DNA of 55,913 nt from a virus (taxonomy: Duplodnaviria > Heunggongvirae > Uroviricota > Caudoviricetes). Position 1 is the first letter of the stretch; each line of letters starts with the position of its first letter. Positions 6,772-49,211 of this stretch are shown piece by piece. The stretch covers positions 1-55,913 of the IMG/VR virus record IMGVR_UViG_2778261121_000001; one strand, written 5' to 3'. A model generated the notes under the pieces. The model was not told the DNA's origin, did no database searches, and was given only the letters and a program-made list of their open reading frames with translations. A program made the position numbers and the translations under genes.

Positions 6772-7421
6772 TCGTCATCCTCATCCGAGTCATCCTCATC
6801 ACAGGATGAGAGTAGTGGGTTAGTCATTCGCCCTACTTGAGTGGCGTAGCCACGCCGACAGAGATTGCGCAGCACACTGTATATTTCGAACATCTCGGTT
6901 CGTTCATCGCCAACATCAAGCTCAGATGCTATAGCGTGGCATTCAGTCGCGAGAGCCGATATTTTCTGAAATAACTCTGCATTATTCACTGTTCGACTCC
7001 TGCGGCGTTCTGGTAGTGGCATCCAGTGTGTGACATTGCTAATCAGACCATATTCATTAGTTTGAGGATGGTTGCCGTTATCGTCTCCGTATTTAAGACT
7101 CTCCATAAAGCCATAATGCCTATCACCATTAACGCTCACAAAGCCGTAATAAGCAGGTATAACGCCGATCTCACACGTAACCAGTAAAGGAAAACTAGTT
7201 CTCCAATTTAGCTCGCCAATTACAGGCATTCGCTCACTACAGCTTATCCAACCATCCTTAGATGCGGCTGTATTGGCATAGGCCTTACGGTGCTTCTGTA
7301 GCTCTGCTGCAATCGCTCTCACGACTTCAACTGGTGCCCTTGCAGCAAACTCAATGTTGGTGATCAGCTCATTAAGATATTTCTCGCTTGGGTAACATTT
7401 CTTATTGTTAACGGTGGTCAT
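6768..7421 (-). CDS. phage protein with a DUF551-like THWMPLPE motif and acidic C-tail
   Basis: ORF in track; motif recalled from phage DUF551 proteins, recognised by eye only. Confidence 0.45.
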   Translation of the reverse strand: MTTVNNKKCYPSEKYLNELITNIEFAARAPVEVVRAIAAELQKHRKAYANTAASKDGWISCSERMPVIGELNWRTSFPLLVTCEIGVIPAYYGFVSVNGDRHYGFMESLKYGDDNGNHPQTNEYGLISNVTHWMPLPERRRSRTVNNAELFQKISALATECHAIASELDVGDERTEMFEIYSVLRNLCRRGYATQVGRMTNPLLSSCDEDDSDEDDE

Positions 7422-7606
7422 TAGGCAGCTCTCTCAACAACAAGCAATTCGTCGTAGTCATAATCAGTTTCGGAACCATCCGTACCGAACAGAGTCACTT
7501 TGTCATCTTCCATCCAAAAAGATTTAACCGCACATTGTTGACCTTTAGATGTTATGAGCACATCACCAGGGATTACGTCTTCAGCGCGAACTTCTAGTGT
7601 TCTCAT
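7421..7606 (-). CDS. hypothetical protein (61 aa)
   Basis: ORF in track, stop/start overlap with neighbours. Confidence 0.4.
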   Translation of the reverse strand: MRTLEVRAEDVIPGDVLITSKGQQCAVKSFWMEDDKVTLFGTDGSETDYDYDELLVVERAA

Positions 7607-39614: not shown

Positions 39615-39637
39615 AAAAAAGGCGTCCTGTGGACGCC
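39615..39637 (-). terminator. intrinsic terminator downstream of the recA-like gene
   Basis: GGCGTCC-ACA-GGACGCC followed by UUUUUU on the minus strand. Confidence 0.6.
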
Positions 39638-39643
39638 TTGTGT

Positions 39644-41983
39644 TTACTCTTCTACTGACTCGGTGGGATTGTCTTTTGATCTCCGGTCGTCGATTGCCTG
39701 TAAAGCCGCAATGATTTCAGCTAGTGGCTTCTCCCGATACATCTCGACGATCTGTGATTTGGTGTATTTCTTGTCACCAATTTCTACTCGACCGCTGGCG
39801 TTCTTTGGCAGGTATCCTTCTTCCAGCATGTACTCGACGAGCGATTCGATAACGTCGAGGCCACGAGTAGGATCGAAGTAGAATTTCCAGGTGCATTTGC
39901 CATACGGTGGTGCAACTTTGTTTTTGATGCATTCTGCGCCTACGTCCTGGCCGATCTTCTCTTTACCATCCTTCATCACCGATGCACCAAGACGGATACG
40001 TACAGAAGCGTAGAACTTCGGTGAATCTCCACCTGGCGACGTAGTAGGGTCGCCAAACATTACACCGATTTTTGTGCGAACCTGATTCAAGAAGATGATG
40101 CAGGCGTTGTATTTGCGTGCCCACAAAGCCAGAGTAGGGAAGTTCGCACTCGTCGCACGAGCCAGTGCCGTATTGTCGTTCATGTTTAGCTGATCTTTGT
40201 CTTTGGCTGTGCCTTCAGCCATCTTTTCGAACTTCTCGGCTTTGGAGTTCGGAACCATAGACGCAAGAGAGTCAGCCACGATACAGATAGGTGCTGATTC
40301 GGGGATAAGCTCTTCATCACGAACCAATTTAAGTATTGTGCCGATCAACTCTACAGAGTCTTCGAAGGTATCTGGCTGCTTGTACACCCACTGACCGTCA
40401 TCCTCATCTGCGTTCAGGCCATTGGCTACAGCCAGGCCAACGTCAAAACTGTTTTCATGATCGAGGAATACCGCCAGACCATCTTGTTTTTGAGCGGAGA
40501 TCATCGCTGCTGTTGCAAGGAATGTGTTGTGGCTGATAATCCCGTTAGACCAGAAAGAGTGTGTTTCCGGCATCGCTACGTCGAACGTTGGTGCTTCACC
40601 TTCCTCAATAGCCACGACTTCGTCGTAGAACAAGTTAGAGCCAATTACCGCTGCCAGTTGTGCAAACAGATGCTCGTTAAAACGATTCTTTCTGCCAATG
40701 AAGGAGACATAGATTTCTCGCAGTTTGTCTATTCCGACACGATCGCCGCGGCCAATAACGTGGTCTACCAGAGCGTAGTCTTCACGGGTGGTCTTGGTGA
40801 GCGACTCGTAGAGTGATTTCACTAAGCCGCTGATGTGCGGAACATAGCCTGAGTAAGTGCGGTCAAAACCAATGTCCCGTTTGGTTGCCACTGATAAACG
40901 TGCCGGAGATTCGAAACCAATCGTTGACAGAAAAAGGTCGTAATTAGAGCCACTGAATGACAGCCGGTAATATGTATTTTCATAACCCGCGACGTGTTTT
41001 TCAGAGATAGTTGACGTAATCCCCAGATTCAGGAGCATGAGGCGAATTTGCTGTAGCAGCAGCCCACTCGCGCTCACAACCTCAATGCAGCGACCATCAT
41101 TGACGTGGCATTCCAGCTCAAAGTAGCCGCGAAGGAATGCAATTTGAGCCTCGCTATTGGCGCGACGCACACTCAACGGAACCTGCTTGCCAGCAGCTTT
41201 CTCATACTCCAGACCATATTCTTTAAAAAGCAGCGAACGCACCTCTTTGCTAAACAGCACATGGTCTTCCGAGCCGTTATGTTTTCTCGTAACTGGCATC
41301 TTGTCTGATACCAGCGAAATGAGGCGGTAGTACTCATCCTTGATGAAAGGATCTGTGTTAGAAAAATTCACTGAATTTTCAGAGGCCACGTATCCGTCAG
41401 CAATTAAATAGCCCATCAGTTTTGCGATATTGGCATCCAGGTGCTGATCGCCGAATTGATGTGTGCCAACCATTGAAGGAATCGTGTCGCCTACACTGAT
41501 TTTTTCAGCATGTCGCCAGACGACATTACCTAAGTCGTCAACCACACGGATTGGGTGACGGAACGTAGCCTCGATATAACCGCCTGATGCCAGCTTAATA
41601 CGCTTGAATTTGCGATGGTTGTTCCATGTCAGGTGTGAGGTCTTCTCTATCACGCCATTTTCATTGATGAGTCCAACGTTATGCTCTACATCGCGAGTAG
41701 TGCATGTCGCTTTGTACCCTTCAATCTCAAACAACTCTTTCACTGTTACCATTCCACGCTCCGTCAGCAGCATGGTGTCTGCGGTAACACATTTCCCCGC
41801 ACTTGGAGGACCGAATACTTCGACGATACGACCACATGGGAAGCCGCCATCGTAACGACCGGAAATAGCTTTGTTTAACGGAGGAAAGCCTGTGTCAATC
41901 CAATGAGTTACTTTCTGAATTTCGTCGTTGCTACCGATTTTCTTTTTCAGAGCAAGTGCCAGTGCGGATTTTCCTTTTGCCAT
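39644..41983 (-). CDS. RecA-like recombinase interrupted by an intein
   Basis: Exteins (64 + 293 aa) give a RecA-sized protein with Walker A GPPSAGK|TFLAT split by the intein. Confidence 0.8.
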   Translation of the reverse strand: MAKGKSALALALKKKIGSNDEIQKVTHWIDTGFPPLNKAISGRYDGGFPCGRIVEVFGPPSAGKCVTADTMLLTERGMVTVKELFEIEGYKATCTTRDVEHNVGLINENGVIEKTSHLTWNNHRKFKRIKLASGGYIEATFRHPIRVVDDLGNVVWRHAEKISVGDTIPSMVGTHQFGDQHLDANIAKLMGYLIADGYVASENSVNFSNTDPFIKDEYYRLISLVSDKMPVTRKHNGSEDHVLFSKEVRSLLFKEYGLEYEKAAGKQVPLSVRRANSEAQIAFLRGYFELECHVNDGRCIEVVSASGLLLQQIRLMLLNLGITSTISEKHVAGYENTYYRLSFSGSNYDLFLSTIGFESPARLSVATKRDIGFDRTYSGYVPHISGLVKSLYESLTKTTREDYALVDHVIGRGDRVGIDKLREIYVSFIGRKNRFNEHLFAQLAAVIGSNLFYDEVVAIEEGEAPTFDVAMPETHSFWSNGIISHNTFLATAAMISAQKQDGLAVFLDHENSFDVGLAVANGLNADEDDGQWVYKQPDTFEDSVELIGTILKLVRDEELIPESAPICIVADSLASMVPNSKAEKFEKMAEGTAKDKDQLNMNDNTALARATSANFPTLALWARKYNACIIFLNQVRTKIGVMFGDPTTSPGGDSPKFYASVRIRLGASVMKDGKEKIGQDVGAECIKNKVAPPYGKCTWKFYFDPTRGLDVIESLVEYMLEEGYLPKNASGRVEIGDKKYTKSQIVEMYREKPLAEIIAALQAIDDRRSKDNPTESVEE
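40526..41791 (-). mobile_element. intein with LAGLIDADG homing-endonuclease domain (422 aa)
   Basis: Starts with Cys after GPPSAGK, ends with HN before Thr; LAGLIDADG-like blocks (LMGYLIADGYV, FLRGYFELECHV). Confidence 0.7.
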
Positions 41984-41985
41984 GA

Positions 41986-42258
41986 TCAGGCTCCTTTTGT
42001 TTCGTTGATTCGTTTTAAAGCGGCGGATTCATCGAATACAATCGCATCGTGGTTAAGGAGTCTGGATACACGAGCGAGGATTTTTACGACCTGCTCGCTG
42101 ACTAATCCAAACTCGCGATCTGTCGCTTTCATTCCGGCAGTGCCTAGAATTGACGGCAGTGCGATGACAGCGTACTCACCGTGATAAAAGACAATCTCTT
42201 TTGCCAGTTGGGTAGGGGTGGTGGTAGCGCCATTAATAATCGATTTAAGCATTAGCAA
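41986..42258 (-). CDS. hypothetical protein (90 aa)
   Basis: ORF in track between the FEN and recA-like genes. Confidence 0.4.
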   Translation of the reverse strand: MLMLKSIINGATTTPTQLAKEIVFYHGEYAVIALPSILGTAGMKATDREFGLVSEQVVKILARVSRLLNHDAIVFDESAALKRINETKGA

Positions 42259-44959: not shown

Positions 44960-46129
44960 TCACGTCTTAATAGTTTCTGCTACGTCGGCTAATATAGCTT
45001 CTAGTCGTTCTCCCTCTTCAGGTCTGAAGTAAAGAATGTTGGGGTTAAACCCGTAAAAGACAGTAACGTCAAGGTCTGGAAGATACTCCTTCCTGCCGAC
45101 CAAATCGGATGGCTTGTTTTTGTTGTTAAACAATGAAGTTGCCCGGCTGCCACACGTCAGCACATAGGTCGGACGCACCAGATTGATCTCTTCACGCATA
45201 AAGTCGGTGAACTGGCCGATCTCGTCTTTGGTGTAGTCTTTTTCTTTGTCTTTAACCTTCTTGCAAACGCCTGTGACATAGAGATCGCCCATGCGTAAAT
45301 CTCCAGCCGTCAATAGCTTGGCCTTAAAATCGTCGTATCCGTTCTCCATAAAGTAACCGGTTCGAGCATCATTGCCGTTCGCATTGTCCAGAATGATCAT
45401 GATTTTCGGCTTAATACCAATGCTGGGGCGGATTAGTTCATCACCTAAGCCCATTTCAGCCGCCATCCGTGTCATGAGCACGTTAATCTCAGCCGAACGT
45501 TTGGGGTTCATCTCAAACGGACGTGAGGCTTTAACTGCGTCTATGACAAGATTTCCCATCAATTCAGCCTGGTCGCGTAGGCGCTCTGGATCAGTTGCTG
45601 GCAGACTACCTGGCTCGATGGATGCAAACGCCCCTACTTTTTGCAGCGATTCGCGCACTCGACTATTACAGGCACGTTTCTCGACAGCTTCTTCGAATTG
45701 CGCAAGTGACTCGAATTTGCCACCAACCTTTTCTCGCGCTCTCATGATGGCCTGGCAGCCATTCTCAGAACACCCCTTCACAGCAGAGAAGGGCGCATAC
45801 AGCACCTGGCTGCCATCTTCAAGCGTGCGGATCTCGATTCGGTTAGATGACACGTTAACGTCTGGTGGCAATACGCGAATACCATAGGTCAGCGCATCTT
45901 TAACCAGCCCCTGGTGTTTATCTTCGCCAAGAATAGTGAGAGCAGCAGCGAAAAACTCTGCGGGATAATGAGTTTTCAACCACATAGATTGATAACTGAT
46001 CAAGGAGTAAGCAACAGAGTGTGATTTGTTAAAGGCGTATCCACCGAACTTTTCAAAGGCGTCCCATATTTCCTGGGCTTTCTCAGGGCTAAGACCTTCC
46101 TGCTCGGAAATAACTTTTGCAATTTTCAT
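44960..46129 (-). CDS. DNA polymerase III alpha (DnaE) C-terminal fragment
   Basis: Begins MKIAKVI...FEKFGGYAFNKSHS, aligning with the DnaE fingers region; own ATG in the conserved GGGAAAACACATG context. Confidence 0.75.
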   Translation of the reverse strand: MKIAKVISEQEGLSPEKAQEIWDAFEKFGGYAFNKSHSVAYSLISYQSMWLKTHYPAEFFAAALTILGEDKHQGLVKDALTYGIRVLPPDVNVSSNRIEIRTLEDGSQVLYAPFSAVKGCSENGCQAIMRAREKVGGKFESLAQFEEAVEKRACNSRVRESLQKVGAFASIEPGSLPATDPERLRDQAELMGNLVIDAVKASRPFEMNPKRSAEINVLMTRMAAEMGLGDELIRPSIGIKPKIMIILDNANGNDARTGYFMENGYDDFKAKLLTAGDLRMGDLYVTGVCKKVKDKEKDYTKDEIGQFTDFMREEINLVRPTYVLTCGSRATSLFNNKNKPSDLVGRKEYLPDLDVTVFYGFNPNILYFRPEEGERLEAILADVAETIKT

Positions 46130-46149
46130 GTGTTTTCCCGTTGCTAGCT

Positions 46150-46851
46150 TCAAATGCTTGCTTTTTTTAAGATATTTGCGATTTGAGTGTTAGATATGCC
46201 GAATTTTTCTCGCAACTTTTCGTAGGTTGCGCCAGCTTTGCGCAAGGCGACCACTTCAGCTCTTGCTTCGTCATCCAGCTTTTTGGATGCCCTTGAGGCA
46301 ACGATCGGCCCACCAATACGTGCCCATTTCTTCCCGGTGACGATATGGTGAATATAAAGCTCAGTTAAACCATATTCGGCCGCGAGGTCTTTGTTCAGAG
46401 CACCCTCTGACTTTTTAATGCGAATAGCAATGACGACTTCGTTGGTTAGCTTGGCGTTGTAGCGCCTCTCACCAAACTCAACGGTATCGTGTGCAATGGC
46501 GTCAGCCATGTTGTCGACTTGAGTGCCATACGCGAGATTGAAGGGCGCATTGTTTGATGGTTTACCGTCAAGATGACGAATAAGTAAGCCTTCTGGTCGT
46601 TCTCCGTGGAATGCAGTTGCTACCAGATAATGAACTGTGCGGTCGTATTTGACGCCGTTGACGCTTAGTTTCACGCCAAGATGTCCAAAATCATTGATTA
46701 CGCGAGGTTTTAGGATTTGCCCCTTCTTCACCCATTCGCCCCCTTTGGGGGCTGTTTGTATAACATCTAATGAGCGAATGCGTCCTAAACTGGATGCTTC
46801 GTAATAACCTTCAAATTCAGGAATAGATTTCCAAACTTCTTCCACCGTCAA
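46150..46851 (-). CDS. HNH homing endonuclease inserted within dnaE
   Basis: 233-aa ORF in a different frame from both dnaE halves, overlapping the upstream stop and ending 18 nt before the downstream ATG; family assigned from the split-gene context, no HNH or NUMOD motif checked. Confidence 0.6.
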   Translation of the reverse strand: MTVEEVWKSIPEFEGYYEASSLGRIRSLDVIQTAPKGGEWVKKGQILKPRVINDFGHLGVKLSVNGVKYDRTVHYLVATAFHGERPEGLLIRHLDGKPSNNAPFNLAYGTQVDNMADAIAHDTVEFGERRYNAKLTNEVVIAIRIKKSEGALNKDLAAEYGLTELYIHHIVTGKKWARIGGPIVASRASKKLDDEARAEVVALRKAGATYEKLREKFGISNTQIANILKKASI

Positions 46852-49211
46852 ACTCCAAAATCAACAATATCAGCGTTGTCACTCATCGCTTCGTCATAGG
46901 TCCTGCGTTTGCCGTCAGAGCACAGCAGCATGGCCTTTTTGTGGACTTCTACTGTGCTTCCGTCTTCAAGTGACAGTGTCACCCAGCCTGCTTGTGCTCG
47001 TTCTACAAAATCGCTGCCGATCGCTTTCATCTTTTCCATGTTCTTCTTACCGATGGCGGAACGCAGAGCATCAGCCTCCGCCATAGAGAATCCAGCGAGC
47101 ACACGAGAGCTTTTCATAATTTGCTCTTGATAGAGCAAAACGCCGTTAGTTTCTTTGGTTGTTTCCTCAAGACGAGGATGAATTGAATGTGGAGCCATAA
47201 AACCTTTGGCGACAGAAACATAGTCATCCAACATGCCTGACTGAATTGGCCCCGGCCGGAAGAGCGCAGTTGTAGCAACAACCGTTTTAAAGCTCATTGG
47301 CTCAATTCCACCACCTAAATCTTTAAGCAGCTTGCGCATTGGGCCTGATTCAAGCTGGAAAACACCTTGAGTGTACCCAGCAGCAAAACCATCCAGCACC
47401 TTGCGATCCTCAAGAGAAATGGCATCAAGATTGATATCTTCACCTGTGTTCTCTTTTATGTAGCGTTTTGCACTATCGAGCAAATCGAGAGTTGCCAGGC
47501 CAAGCACGTCTAGCTTAATTAGGCCCATAGCCTCGCAGTAACGCTTGTCAAATGCGATACAACGCGCGTCACCACGGCGTTCAACCGGTGTACGTTCTGT
47601 CAGAGGAACACCTGCTACGATCATCCCTGCCGCATGTCTACCAAAGCCACGCATAAGGCTTTGTAACTTGCAGGCTGCATTGAATGCATCAGGATATTTT
47701 GTTGCGTATTTGTCGAGACTTGCCAGTTGTTCGCGCAGCTCTTCCAATGGAAGGCTATCATCCTCGACGTTCTTCAGTTCTTTTGATACCGCCATATCTG
47801 CGGACTCCACACCATAAATACGAGCGGTGTCACGTAGTGCAGAGGCTGCGCCCAGGTAGGTGAAGTTCGGAATGCCTGCAACGTAATCTTCGCCGTAGCG
47901 TTCATTCAGATACTCGATCACCTCATGGCGACGTGCCTGGCTGAAGTCCAAGTCCGCATCTGGCAAGTCGAGACGCTCAGGGTTGATGAAACGCTCAAAC
48001 AGAAGACCGTGACGGATTGGGTCGACGTTGGTTATGCCTATGCACCACGCCACCAGAGAACCGGCAGAGGAACCACGACCAGGCCCGACAGGAATGCCAG
48101 TTTCACGGCTGTGATTCATCAGATCGCGTACCATCAGGAAGTAACCACAAAATCCCAGGCGAGTCAGCGTGTCCATTTCGTACTTAAGCCGTTCAACATA
48201 AATCCTGTTCTCAGAAGCCGGTGGTGTGTAGCCAAACTCTTTTGTGGTAAGACGTTTACGCAGCCCAGCAACGGCCAGTTTCATCAGCGTTGCAGGCTCG
48301 TCGTCTGCCATCTTTGGCAGTGCTGGTGGCAATTCATGCCAGCGCCATGTGCAGGCATCGATAATGGTATCCTGCGTTGTTGAGGCCATTGCAGCTGTTA
48401 CCGGCACATCCATGCGAACGGAGAAGGCTTTAAGAGCCTCAAGGAGATGGCGGCGACCATTGACGGCGTTATCTCGCTGGTGGGGGATACGCAGACGATG
48501 CGGCTGGTCGATTTTGATGTTGTTCGTAACCATGTGCGCAATGTCTTTAATGTCTGCATCGTCGATCGATTCGTAATAAGCGGGATAGAACGCTACTGGC
48601 TCTATTTTCAGTGCTCTGGCGACTTTCATCGCCCGGACGTTAATCTGGTCGTAGAATGGTGTAGGGTGCGGATAAACCACACTATAGAAGTTGTCTTTTC
48701 CACCTGCTGTAATCAGTGAGCTTATGATTTTTGCAAAATCGTTGCGTTGGAACACGCTACCGATGTCGGAAGTGAGCAGGATGATGTTGCCTTTGGCATA
48801 TGTAGAAACCAACTGTTCGAGCGAGAGACGCGGTACAAAGTAGAACTGTTCTCGTGTGTTGGCCACCGTCATTAGTTCGCAGATGTCGCGATATCCTTGC
48901 TCATTTTTAATTAGAGCGGTAAACGAGTAGTTACGTCCTCGCTCTAATGATTCCATACATCCCTTAGACTCTTTAGCAAGTTTAGCCCGGTACTCGTATG
49001 TGGGATCATCAACGATATTTAGTTTCACACCACAAATAACCGCCATGTCGTCACCAGCGGCACGTTGTAGTGGAATAACACTCGCAATATTCATGCTATC
49101 TGCTGAAATTACAGCGGTGTAGCCAGCTTCTCTGGCAATCTTCACCGCGTTTTCCGCTTTTAAAGCCGACTCCCCAAGTGAGAAGTCAGTTCGAACCATC
49201 AGTGCCTTCAT
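46848..49211 (-). CDS. DNA polymerase III alpha (DnaE) N-terminal fragment (PHP and polymerase core)
   Basis: 787 aa aligning with the DnaE N-terminal two thirds; conserved start context. Confidence 0.85.
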   Translation of the reverse strand: MKALMVRTDFSLGESALKAENAVKIAREAGYTAVISADSMNIASVIPLQRAAGDDMAVICGVKLNIVDDPTYEYRAKLAKESKGCMESLERGRNYSFTALIKNEQGYRDICELMTVANTREQFYFVPRLSLEQLVSTYAKGNIILLTSDIGSVFQRNDFAKIISSLITAGGKDNFYSVVYPHPTPFYDQINVRAMKVARALKIEPVAFYPAYYESIDDADIKDIAHMVTNNIKIDQPHRLRIPHQRDNAVNGRRHLLEALKAFSVRMDVPVTAAMASTTQDTIIDACTWRWHELPPALPKMADDEPATLMKLAVAGLRKRLTTKEFGYTPPASENRIYVERLKYEMDTLTRLGFCGYFLMVRDLMNHSRETGIPVGPGRGSSAGSLVAWCIGITNVDPIRHGLLFERFINPERLDLPDADLDFSQARRHEVIEYLNERYGEDYVAGIPNFTYLGAASALRDTARIYGVESADMAVSKELKNVEDDSLPLEELREQLASLDKYATKYPDAFNAACKLQSLMRGFGRHAAGMIVAGVPLTERTPVERRGDARCIAFDKRYCEAMGLIKLDVLGLATLDLLDSAKRYIKENTGEDINLDAISLEDRKVLDGFAAGYTQGVFQLESGPMRKLLKDLGGGIEPMSFKTVVATTALFRPGPIQSGMLDDYVSVAKGFMAPHSIHPRLEETTKETNGVLLYQEQIMKSSRVLAGFSMAEADALRSAIGKKNMEKMKAIGSDFVERAQAGWVTLSLEDGSTVEVHKKAMLLCSDGKRRTYDEAMSDNADIVDFGV

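Follow-up and report, generated by a model that had tools for sequence, protein, structure and literature searches.

A probable intein with a homing endonuclease in the ATP-binding loop of a phage-plasmid RecA-family recombinase

Introduction

How can a recombinase work when the Lys and the Thr of its ATP-binding loop stand 422 residues apart in the primary translation product? The question is raised by a gene at 39644–41983, minus strand, of IMG/VR record IMGVR_UViG_2778261121_000001, the whole 55,913-nt stretch of which is here termed the window. Its open reading frame (ORF), of 779 codons plus stop, specifies an 86.5-kDa polypeptide which the ORF list and profile matches together identify as a RecA-family recombinase split by an intein. 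As the Walker A Lys and Thr are so far separated, the ATP-binding loop can form only after the insert has been removed, and an earlier note on this DNA had proposed that the recombinase depends on protein splicing, with an intein bearing LAGLIDADG-type blocks placed exactly between the two residues. The analysis leads to a reading close to that one: very probably, a canonical class-1 intein with a two-motif LAGLIDADG endonuclease lies between Lys64 and Thr487 of the Walker A motif, in a UvsX-like recombinase of the SSU5-like phage-plasmids of Enterobacteriaceae, and homes between alleles of that gene. The intein is not new, being an ordinary member of a well-known class that is recognised already in database annotation. 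What is newly added is an exact empty-site control and, as judged from comparison of the alleles, a clear signature of recent homing that spans lineages and genera of phage-plasmids, with approximately half of the alleles occupied.

The insertion and its empty counterparts

Where exactly does the insert begin and end? All features of the gene are on the minus strand, a point absent from the earlier note. The N-extein (residues 1–64, 41792–41983), which has the same length in an intein-free allele, closes with the start of Walker A (GPPSAGK, 41792–41812); the intein follows as precursor residues 65–486 (40526–41791; 422 residues, 47.5 kDa) and consists of a HINT splicing domain divided by a LAGLIDADG homing endonuclease domain; and the C-extein (residues 487–779 plus stop, 39644–40525) has as its first residue Thr487 (codon ACA, 40523–40525), which would serve both as the +1 splicing nucleophile and as the Thr of Walker A. 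The junctions thus read VFGPPSAGK|CVTADT on the N side and GIISHN|TFLATAAM on the C side, the intein lying between Lys64 and Thr487; the C-extein resumes as TFLATAAMISAQ and the predicted ligated junction peptide reads SAGK-TFLATAAMISAQK. The length and position that had been claimed for the intein are exact, as follows from the codon positions of Cys65 and Asn486.

An independent view of the boundaries comes from elements that lack the insert. The window is 98% identical to the SSU5-like phage-plasmids Escherichia phages PhiR41_1 and Cyrano, which have the same 779-aa gene, while the allele of Escherichia phage CMS-2020a, also with 98% DNA identity, is without the insert: it is exactly 1266 nt shorter, reads continuously as GPPSAGKTFLAT, and at 1074 nt (357 aa) has 22 differences per 1074 nt from the joined exteins of the window. 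The allele of SSU5 itself is also intein-free. For comparison of alleles 22 were hand-picked, 12 occupied and 10 empty, from 691 plasmids, and they are not phylogenetically independent. All 10 intein-free alleles are colinear with the predicted spliced product, with exactly 1266 nt absent, and read GPPSAGKTFLAT. The empty alleles fix the intein boundaries to the codon, bearing out the claim of an interruption exactly between Lys and Thr, and they show that the insert lies outside the recombinase fold. When the exteins are joined they give a single unbroken match to Pfam RecA (PF00154; 145.7 bits, 2.3e-42, residues 27–281). The earlier prediction of a spliced product of approximately 39 kDa agrees with the computed 39.05 kDa for a ligated extein of 357 aa, the very length of the product of the intein-free alleles.

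Base composition of the intein compared with that of the exteins gives no sign of foreign origin (GC 48.1% against 47–49%, and at third codon positions 52.4 against 50.0).

Splicing and endonuclease motifs

Is the insert an intein by its own sequence and predicted fold? The comparison with intein profiles that the earlier note had suggested was made with Pfam and NCBIfam. On the precursor, the RecA match (3.4e-36, above the curated cut-off) comes as two stretches parted by the insert. Within the insert LAGLIDADG_3 (PF14528) matches in two stretches with 2.5e-17 and 63.3 bits against a cut-off of 22.5, and Intein_splicing (PF14890) matches residues 73–486 with 2.5e-11 and 44.1 bits against 35.8; the NCBIfam models intein_Nterm (TIGR01445; 35.5 bits, cut-off 24.5) and intein_Cterm (TIGR01443; 17.8 bits, cut-off 15.6) are also passed. 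Since these matches are significant, chance resemblance is excluded. Further NCBIfam matches are to intein-containing RFC small subunit, aIF2, GyrA, DnaB and V-ATPase A, all of them far under their cut-offs, and they therefore reflect shared intein sequence and not a shared host protein.

The set of class-1 residues, namely Cys1, TxxH, block F, His-Asn and Thr+1, is complete and is conserved in relatives. Block A (CVTADT, 41774–41791) opens with the Cys1 nucleophile, which is Cys65 of the precursor (codon 41789–41791) and is conserved in homologues. Block B (TFRHP, 41552–41566, intein residues 76–80) contains the TxxH as T76-F-R-H79, likewise conserved in the homologue alignment, and block F (PTFDVAMPETHSFWSNG, 40541–40591) is almost invariant among homologues. 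In block G (IISHN, 40526–40540) the penultimate residue is His and the terminal one Asn486 (codon 40526–40528). Class 3 inteins have no residue-1 nucleophile and use a Trp-Cys-Thr triad with the Cys in block F. That class is ruled out here, as Cys1 is present, block F has Asp (FDV) at the place of the class 3 Cys, and it is Ser that precedes the His-Asn of block G.

The LAGLIDADG-type blocks that had been noticed proved to be two motifs 94 residues apart. In the first (LMGYLIADGYV, 41387–41419) the catalytic position is Asp, and in the second (FLRGYFELECHV, 41102–41137) it is Glu (D196 and E291 in precursor numbering). On alignment with the TliVMA intein the second motif pairs with its second motif, and both acidic residues fall on catalytic residues of its endonuclease.

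The complete precursor was modelled with AlphaFold from an alignment of ten sequences. The model has a mean predicted local distance difference test (pLDDT) score of 67, with the intein mostly at 70–94, and in it the insert is predicted to have the HINT fold. When the model was compared with the Protein Data Bank (PDB) by Foldseek, the best matches were the TliVMA intein 7qss (E 4e-17; TM score 0.66 normalised to the target), PI-PfuI, PI-PkoII and PhoVMA, the E values for the TliVMA, PI-PfuI and PI-PkoII matches ranging from 4e-17 to 1.5e-13, and many RecA structures rank after them. A search of PDB sequences with the intein gave weak matches, the best at 8e-8 being to VMA inteins, and at E <= 0.01 it found no RadA or RecA intein.

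Two other accounts of the ORF were considered and rejected. One is that it arose from fused or misassembled ORFs, against which the same frame is present in hundreds of independent complete plasmids. The other is that the insert is a genuine RecA insertion domain, which the profile, fold and empty-site evidence goes against.

A split P-loop and its predicted repair

What would this arrangement mean for the recombinase? An 86.5-kDa precursor would be translated with a split P-loop and, as a recombinase, would neither bind nor hydrolyse ATP. Protein splicing follows four steps of established chemistry, and here these would be an N–S acyl shift at Cys65, transesterification onto the side chain of Thr487, cyclisation of Asn486 and an O–N shift, with the release of a 39.0-kDa recombinase having an intact GPPSAGKT loop and of a free 47.5-kDa intein. 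The free intein would act as a site-specific endonuclease that cuts intein-free alleles when two related phage-plasmids share a cell, and in repair from the occupied allele the intein and a few of the bases that flank it would be copied into the cut one, i.e., homing. An inactive precursor has a precedent in RadA, whose ATPase activity is compromised by a P-loop intein for as long as this remains unspliced (PMC8529194). The proposed dependence of the recombinase on splicing is thus well founded as far as can be judged from the protein predicted, in which the P-loop exists only in the joined exteins.

Could the insert instead be a domain that does not splice, or simply a disabling insertion, the recombinase being a tolerated pseudogene in occupied elements? 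The recombinase may be dispensable for plasmid maintenance, and PGAP often calls the whole ORF just ‘LAGLIDADG family homing endonuclease’. Yet the splicing catalytic residues are all intact and conserved, the exteins of occupied alleles have a ratio of non-synonymous to synonymous substitution (dN/dS) of 0.01–0.04, which is strong purifying selection, and all 12 occupied alleles carry the insertion in frame, 11 of them with a full-length ORF (the exception, from Escherichia albertii, is returned to below). A pseudogene with such features is most improbable.

Traces of homing among alleles

If a splicing intein with an endonuclease is the favoured reading, do the alleles bear traces of its movement? 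The exteins fall into E. coli, SSU5/pFra (pMT1), Klebsiella and Cronobacter types that differ by 14–18% in DNA, and the first three of these lineages each include both occupied and empty alleles. The inteins within Klebsiella-, SSU5- and Cronobacter-type exteins are mutually 99.6–100% identical while those exteins are 84–86% identical, and the intein of the window has 96.8–97% DNA identity to those inteins, its exteins being 79–84% identical. Expressed as synonymous divergence (dS), the comparison of the window with diverged alleles gives 0.09 for the intein and 1.2–1.7, or saturation, for the exteins. Under vertical descent inteins normally diverge faster than their hosts, as in a RadA comparison where extein identity is 85.5% and intein identity 69.8%. 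Since the intein here is far less diverged than its exteins, the reverse of the vertical pattern, recent lateral transfer between diverged alleles is indicated.

The limits of the transferred DNA are sharp: in three independent extein backgrounds identity breaks within approximately 10 nt of both ends of the intein. In SSU5-type and Klebsiella-type backgrounds alike the occupied junction reads GCGGGGAAA|ACATTCCT, and the empty junctions read GCCGGTAAA|ACCTTTTT in the SSU5 type and GCTGGTAAA|ACCTTCCT in the Klebsiella type. These differences are the footprint that short co-conversion tracts would be expected to leave. With sporadic occupancy, low divergence of the intein and co-conversion of its flanks, the alleles have the population signature that homing would give, and from these comparisons the intein appears to be spreading and is apparently still mobile.

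A contrary interpretation is that splicing is intact with the endonuclease dead, and that the patchy occupancy and the discordance of identities came from ordinary homologous recombination between co-resident phage-plasmids. SSU5-like elements are mosaic, the window differing from Cyrano in other segments too; cleavage is only deduced; the second LAGLIDADG motif is atypical; and three distant relatives at the same site (P0007, P0012 and P0013) have clearly degenerate endonuclease domains, so that decay does occur in the family. Against this, a break in identity so close to both intein ends in three backgrounds fits a double-strand break and is not what random crossovers would predict, both catalytic acidic residues are kept, and the frame is open in all full-length copies examined. 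The dN/dS of the endonuclease domain, 0.18–0.20 from some 15 synonymous and 10 non-synonymous changes, is consistent with a working enzyme. A dead endonuclease is accordingly judged improbable, though not to the degree of a pseudogene.

A number of points weigh against the favoured reading of a splicing and homing intein, in addition to the small number of changes from which that ratio is calculated. The splicing chemistry, the DNA cleavage and the target site are deduced from the sequence and from population-genetic comparison. In the second LAGLIDADG motif (YFELEC) a Cys stands where Gly is usual, which is non-standard, and confidence in the AlphaFold model is low at both splice junctions, with pLDDT below 50 at residues 57–63 and 471–485. 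ACA is the Thr+1 codon of 12/12 occupied alleles and of 0/10 empty ones, which have ACG or ACC, and this association with occupancy is suggestive for hand-picked, non-independent alleles and not a population-wide statistic. Some copies, moreover, are not whole. Partial matches to the intein DNA are found in CP052352.1, a K. pneumoniae plasmid (91% coverage, in two places), and in CP057895.1, a 69.9-kb E. coli plasmid (19% coverage), which suggests rearranged or truncated copies. In the E. albertii plasmid NZ_CP034165.1, itself shortened (63.8 kb), the gene is truncated to 614 aa with an IS911-family transposase adjoining in the C-extein; its intein is the most divergent copy, with 92–94% identity, and it appears to be a decaying form of the element.

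Why should so many alleles be empty? One conceivable answer is that an occupancy of approximately 50% is a balanced state due to target-site immunity, in which synonymous variants at +3 (and at −4/−7), the former being the ACG or ACC that the ten empty alleles have at Thr+1, would make the surviving empty alleles poor substrates. The empty-junction DNA reads GCAGGGAAA|ACGTTCCTT in the E. coli type, GCCGGTAAA|ACCTTTTTG in the SSU5 type and GCTGGTAAA|ACCTTCCTG in the Klebsiella type. The idea is doubtful, although to be taken somewhat more seriously than either a dead endonuclease or a pseudogene. Were it true, these elements would offer a natural and tractable system, in E. coli and Klebsiella, that catches the homing cycle of invasion, resistance and decay while it is under way. 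The phage-plasmids involved would be clinically relevant ones, and splicing might in addition switch their recombinase conditionally.

That last possibility, of a post-translational switch responsive to redox state, metals, temperature or DNA damage, is compatible with a splicing and homing intein and would be additional to it. By analogy, the site is of the same kind as those of the conditional P. horikoshii RadA and M. smegmatis DnaBi1 inteins, the nucleophile is a Cys (Cys1), position 50 of the N-extein is a Cys, and there are more Cys in the intein besides Cys1. Against a necessary regulatory function stands the lack of the intein in approximately half of elements that are otherwise near-identical, and a switch is considered unlikely, roughly to the extent that a dead endonuclease is.

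Distribution and annotation

How widespread is the intein? Its DNA is present, always with at least 90% identity, in 248 PLSDB plasmids (Escherichia 123, Klebsiella 71, Enterobacter 41, Citrobacter 6, and others), and in 120 of 5426 complete E. coli genomes (approximately 2%), where it is always on plasmids and never on the chromosome. DNA of the C-extein is in 243 complete E. coli genomes and in 691 PLSDB plasmids, 63 Yersinia and 40 Salmonella records being among the latter. Occupancy is thereby 120/243 in E. coli (approximately 49%) and 248/691 in plasmids (approximately 36%). This endonuclease-bearing intein circulates, then, in SSU5-like phage-plasmids of E. coli, Klebsiella, Enterobacter, Citrobacter, Cronobacter and Kluyvera, some of them from clinical isolates. 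Its presence can be read as a sign that phage-plasmids of different genera once shared a cell and recombined, and with occupied and empty alleles at approximately 1:1 in an easily handled host it could serve as a model for the study of homing rate, co-conversion and target-site resistance.

The gene has been given a variety of names. RefSeq WP_022649903.1, from Enterobacter, Citrobacter and Kluyvera plasmids, is ‘intein-containing recombinase RecA’, and its intein is 96.8% identical in DNA to that of the window. Most RefSeq E. coli and Klebsiella plasmids label the gene ‘LAGLIDADG family homing endonuclease’, other labels for it being ‘recombinase RecA’, ‘RecA’ and, in PhiR41_1, ‘hypothetical protein’. 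PHROGs holds the full-length family as phrog_9666, of ‘unknown function’. The appropriate annotation of the 779-aa ORF is a recombinase precursor with an intein, rather than a bare ‘LAGLIDADG homing endonuclease’ or plain ‘RecA’. A literature search that combined intein with SSU5, phage-plasmid, pHCM2 and Enterobacteriaceae plasmid RecA found no paper on this element.

Relatives of the intein and its site

A word-indexed protein search, which returned 13 relatives, gave the impression that the intein is rare, and this was rejected on an exhaustive phmmer search with the intein, which gave 4610 cluster representatives at E <= 1e-3 and 188 at E <= 1e-30. Among the best 147 of the 4610, the N-junction is GK|C in 124 and the C-junction is HN|T or HN|S in 133. 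The 144 of these that have at least 40 extein residues comprise 95 of the cellular RecA type (EIYGPESSGK|C...HN|TTLAL), 4 of the window type, 16 of the UvsW-helicase type and 29 other P-loop proteins; the closest exteins of the window type, P0014 and P0015, have approximately 50% extein identity. In sequenced phages, full-length relatives with 31–34% identity are found in approximately 100 Herelleviridae, among them those in the RecA of Bacillus phage fHSPT3 and in the UvsW helicase of Twort-like phages.

The comparison of insertion sites that had also been recommended places the intein of the window at the ‘classic’ site, between Lys and Thr of the P-loop, which is common in bacteria and archaea (PMC5050341) and is the same site as in many RecAs. 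Novikova et al. stress that inteins cluster in P-loops and count RecA, which has 56 of them in Actinobacteria, Cyanobacteria and Proteobacteria, as one of the foremost intein hosts in bacteria (PMC4760082). With a typical kind of site and a typical kind of host protein, the finding leaves the understanding of inteins unchanged. The ‘classic’ P-loop inteins TerL1-a of mycobacteriophages, DnaB-b, MCM-a and RFC-a have the same GK|C...HN|T junction and differ from that of the window in their hosts, the host here being a RecA-family recombinase of Enterobacteriaceae phage-plasmids.

Closest in kind are the inteins at the same site in RecA proteins, both those of cellular type (EIYGPESSGK|C...SHN|TTL) and that in ‘protein RecA’ of Bacillus phage fHSPT3 (GGGK|C...NHN|S). 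These belong to the same intein family, with 28–48% identity to the intein of the window, but the exteins of their hosts are only distantly related to those of the window and several of the inteins are without endonuclease motifs. The cellular-type P0007, P0012 and P0013 retain every splicing block but have lost the first LAGLIDADG motif and a large part of the endonuclease domain, and on their sequences these three would fit the degeneration phase of the homing cycle.

The RadA inteins of P. horikoshii and Thermococcus sibiricus are likewise in the P-loop of a RecA/RadA-family recombinase whose ATPase is compromised prior to splicing, and we take them to be at the exact Lys|Thr position. Unlike the intein of the window they are archaeal mini-inteins, without an endonuclease, and their splicing is temperature-conditional. 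The M. tuberculosis (PI-MtuI) and M. leprae RecA inteins, the founding bacterial example, do have a LAGLIDADG-type endonuclease within a RecA-family protein but are inserted elsewhere. With the mycobacterial-type model NF007072 the score is 100.7 bits against a cut-off of 1024, and only the exteins align, that on the C side to model positions 71–253, the intein being unmatched.

Over all 422 residues the intein has 32–34% identity to one in the UvsW helicase of Twort-like phages (Herelleviridae), which is at a GK|C...HN|T P-loop site as in the window and is annotated ‘intein-containing DNA helicase precursor’; the difference is in the host, an SF2 (superfamily 2) helicase of Firmicutes phages. 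The TliVMA (7qss), PI-PfuI (1dq3) and PI-PkoII (2cw7) inteins, which give the best structural match to the model as well as the best PDB sequence match over the LAGLIDADG domain, are archaeal, in other host proteins, and have 14–21% sequence identity to the intein of the window.

A metagenomic contig in ENA, k141_7541, is syntenic (dnaE, gp32, exonuclease, recombinase), and there too the P-loop site is occupied by an intein, of 44% identity. At 7400–7470 of that contig an in-frame TGA stands in place of the conserved Trp of HSFWSNG, and gene callers split the gene into ORFs of 478 aa and 306 aa; a nonsense mutation, an error of sequencing and the reading of TGA as Trp are all conceivable explanations.

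The host protein and its neighbourhood

What kind of recombinase is interrupted? The earlier designation of the host as RecA stands in respect of the family, given the PF00154 match of the spliced protein described above, and fails in respect of orthology with bacterial RecA, since the score with the equivalog model TIGR02012 is 132.5 bits against a cut-off of 325.3. Pfam did not detect the RecA C-terminal domain (PF21096) in the spliced protein. Of the core motifs, Walker B and an L2-like motif align with RecAs, and Walker A (GxxxxGKT) is found only in the spliced sequence. PHROGs classes the exteins as ‘UvsX-like recombinase’. The host protein is, by these profile and motif assignments, a RecA-family (UvsX-like) phage-plasmid recombinase and not a bacterial RecA orthologue.

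The recombinase gene is preceded by a Shine-Dalgarno-like AAGGAG (41992–41997, minus strand), read from the sequence, 8 nt 5′ of its ATG. The stop of an upstream 90-aa ORF, also on the minus strand, lies 2 nt before that ATG, which is an operon arrangement. A terminator-like hairpin followed by a T-run (39619–39639, minus strand) is 5 nt past the stop codon. Neighbours in the window are a small ORF, a 5′–3′ exonuclease, a gp32-like single-stranded DNA-binding protein (Pfam gp32, 1.7e-66), the gene for the DNA polymerase III alpha subunit, an SPFH protein and a Rep3 initiator; Cyrano has a gene annotated as a UvsY-like mediator at the corresponding position. To judge by their predicted products, these genes make up a T4-style module for recombination and replication, carried by a plasmid-prophage. 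Comparison with copies from SSU5, pHCM2-like elements and Y. pestis pFra (pMT1) gave 83–85% identity and the same gene order, so placing the window among the SSU5-like phage-plasmids.

A further interruption is found in dnaE, the DNA polymerase III alpha gene, which is in pieces at 44960–49211 on the minus strand. Its N-terminal piece (46848–49211, minus strand; 787 aa, with PHP, pol3_alpha and finger domains) matches residues 1–785 of the uninterrupted 1168-aa gene of Cyrano, and its C-terminal piece (44960–46153, minus strand; 397 aa, with HHH_6) matches residues 784–1166. Between them, overlapping each by 4 nt, is a free-standing 233-aa endonuclease gene with NUMOD4, HNH_3 and HTH domains (46150–46851, minus strand), and at the dnaE break there are no intein motifs. 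The HNH gene that splits dnaE is a putative second and independent homing element in the same replication/recombination module. DNA identity to Cyrano passes from 94.4% upstream of it to 83.7% downstream. The HNH gene is in 243 PLSDB plasmids, 181 of them from Klebsiella and only 7 from Escherichia, and RefSeq places it beside dnaE there. It is also present, with 99.3% identity, in the E. albertii plasmid NZ_CP034165.1.

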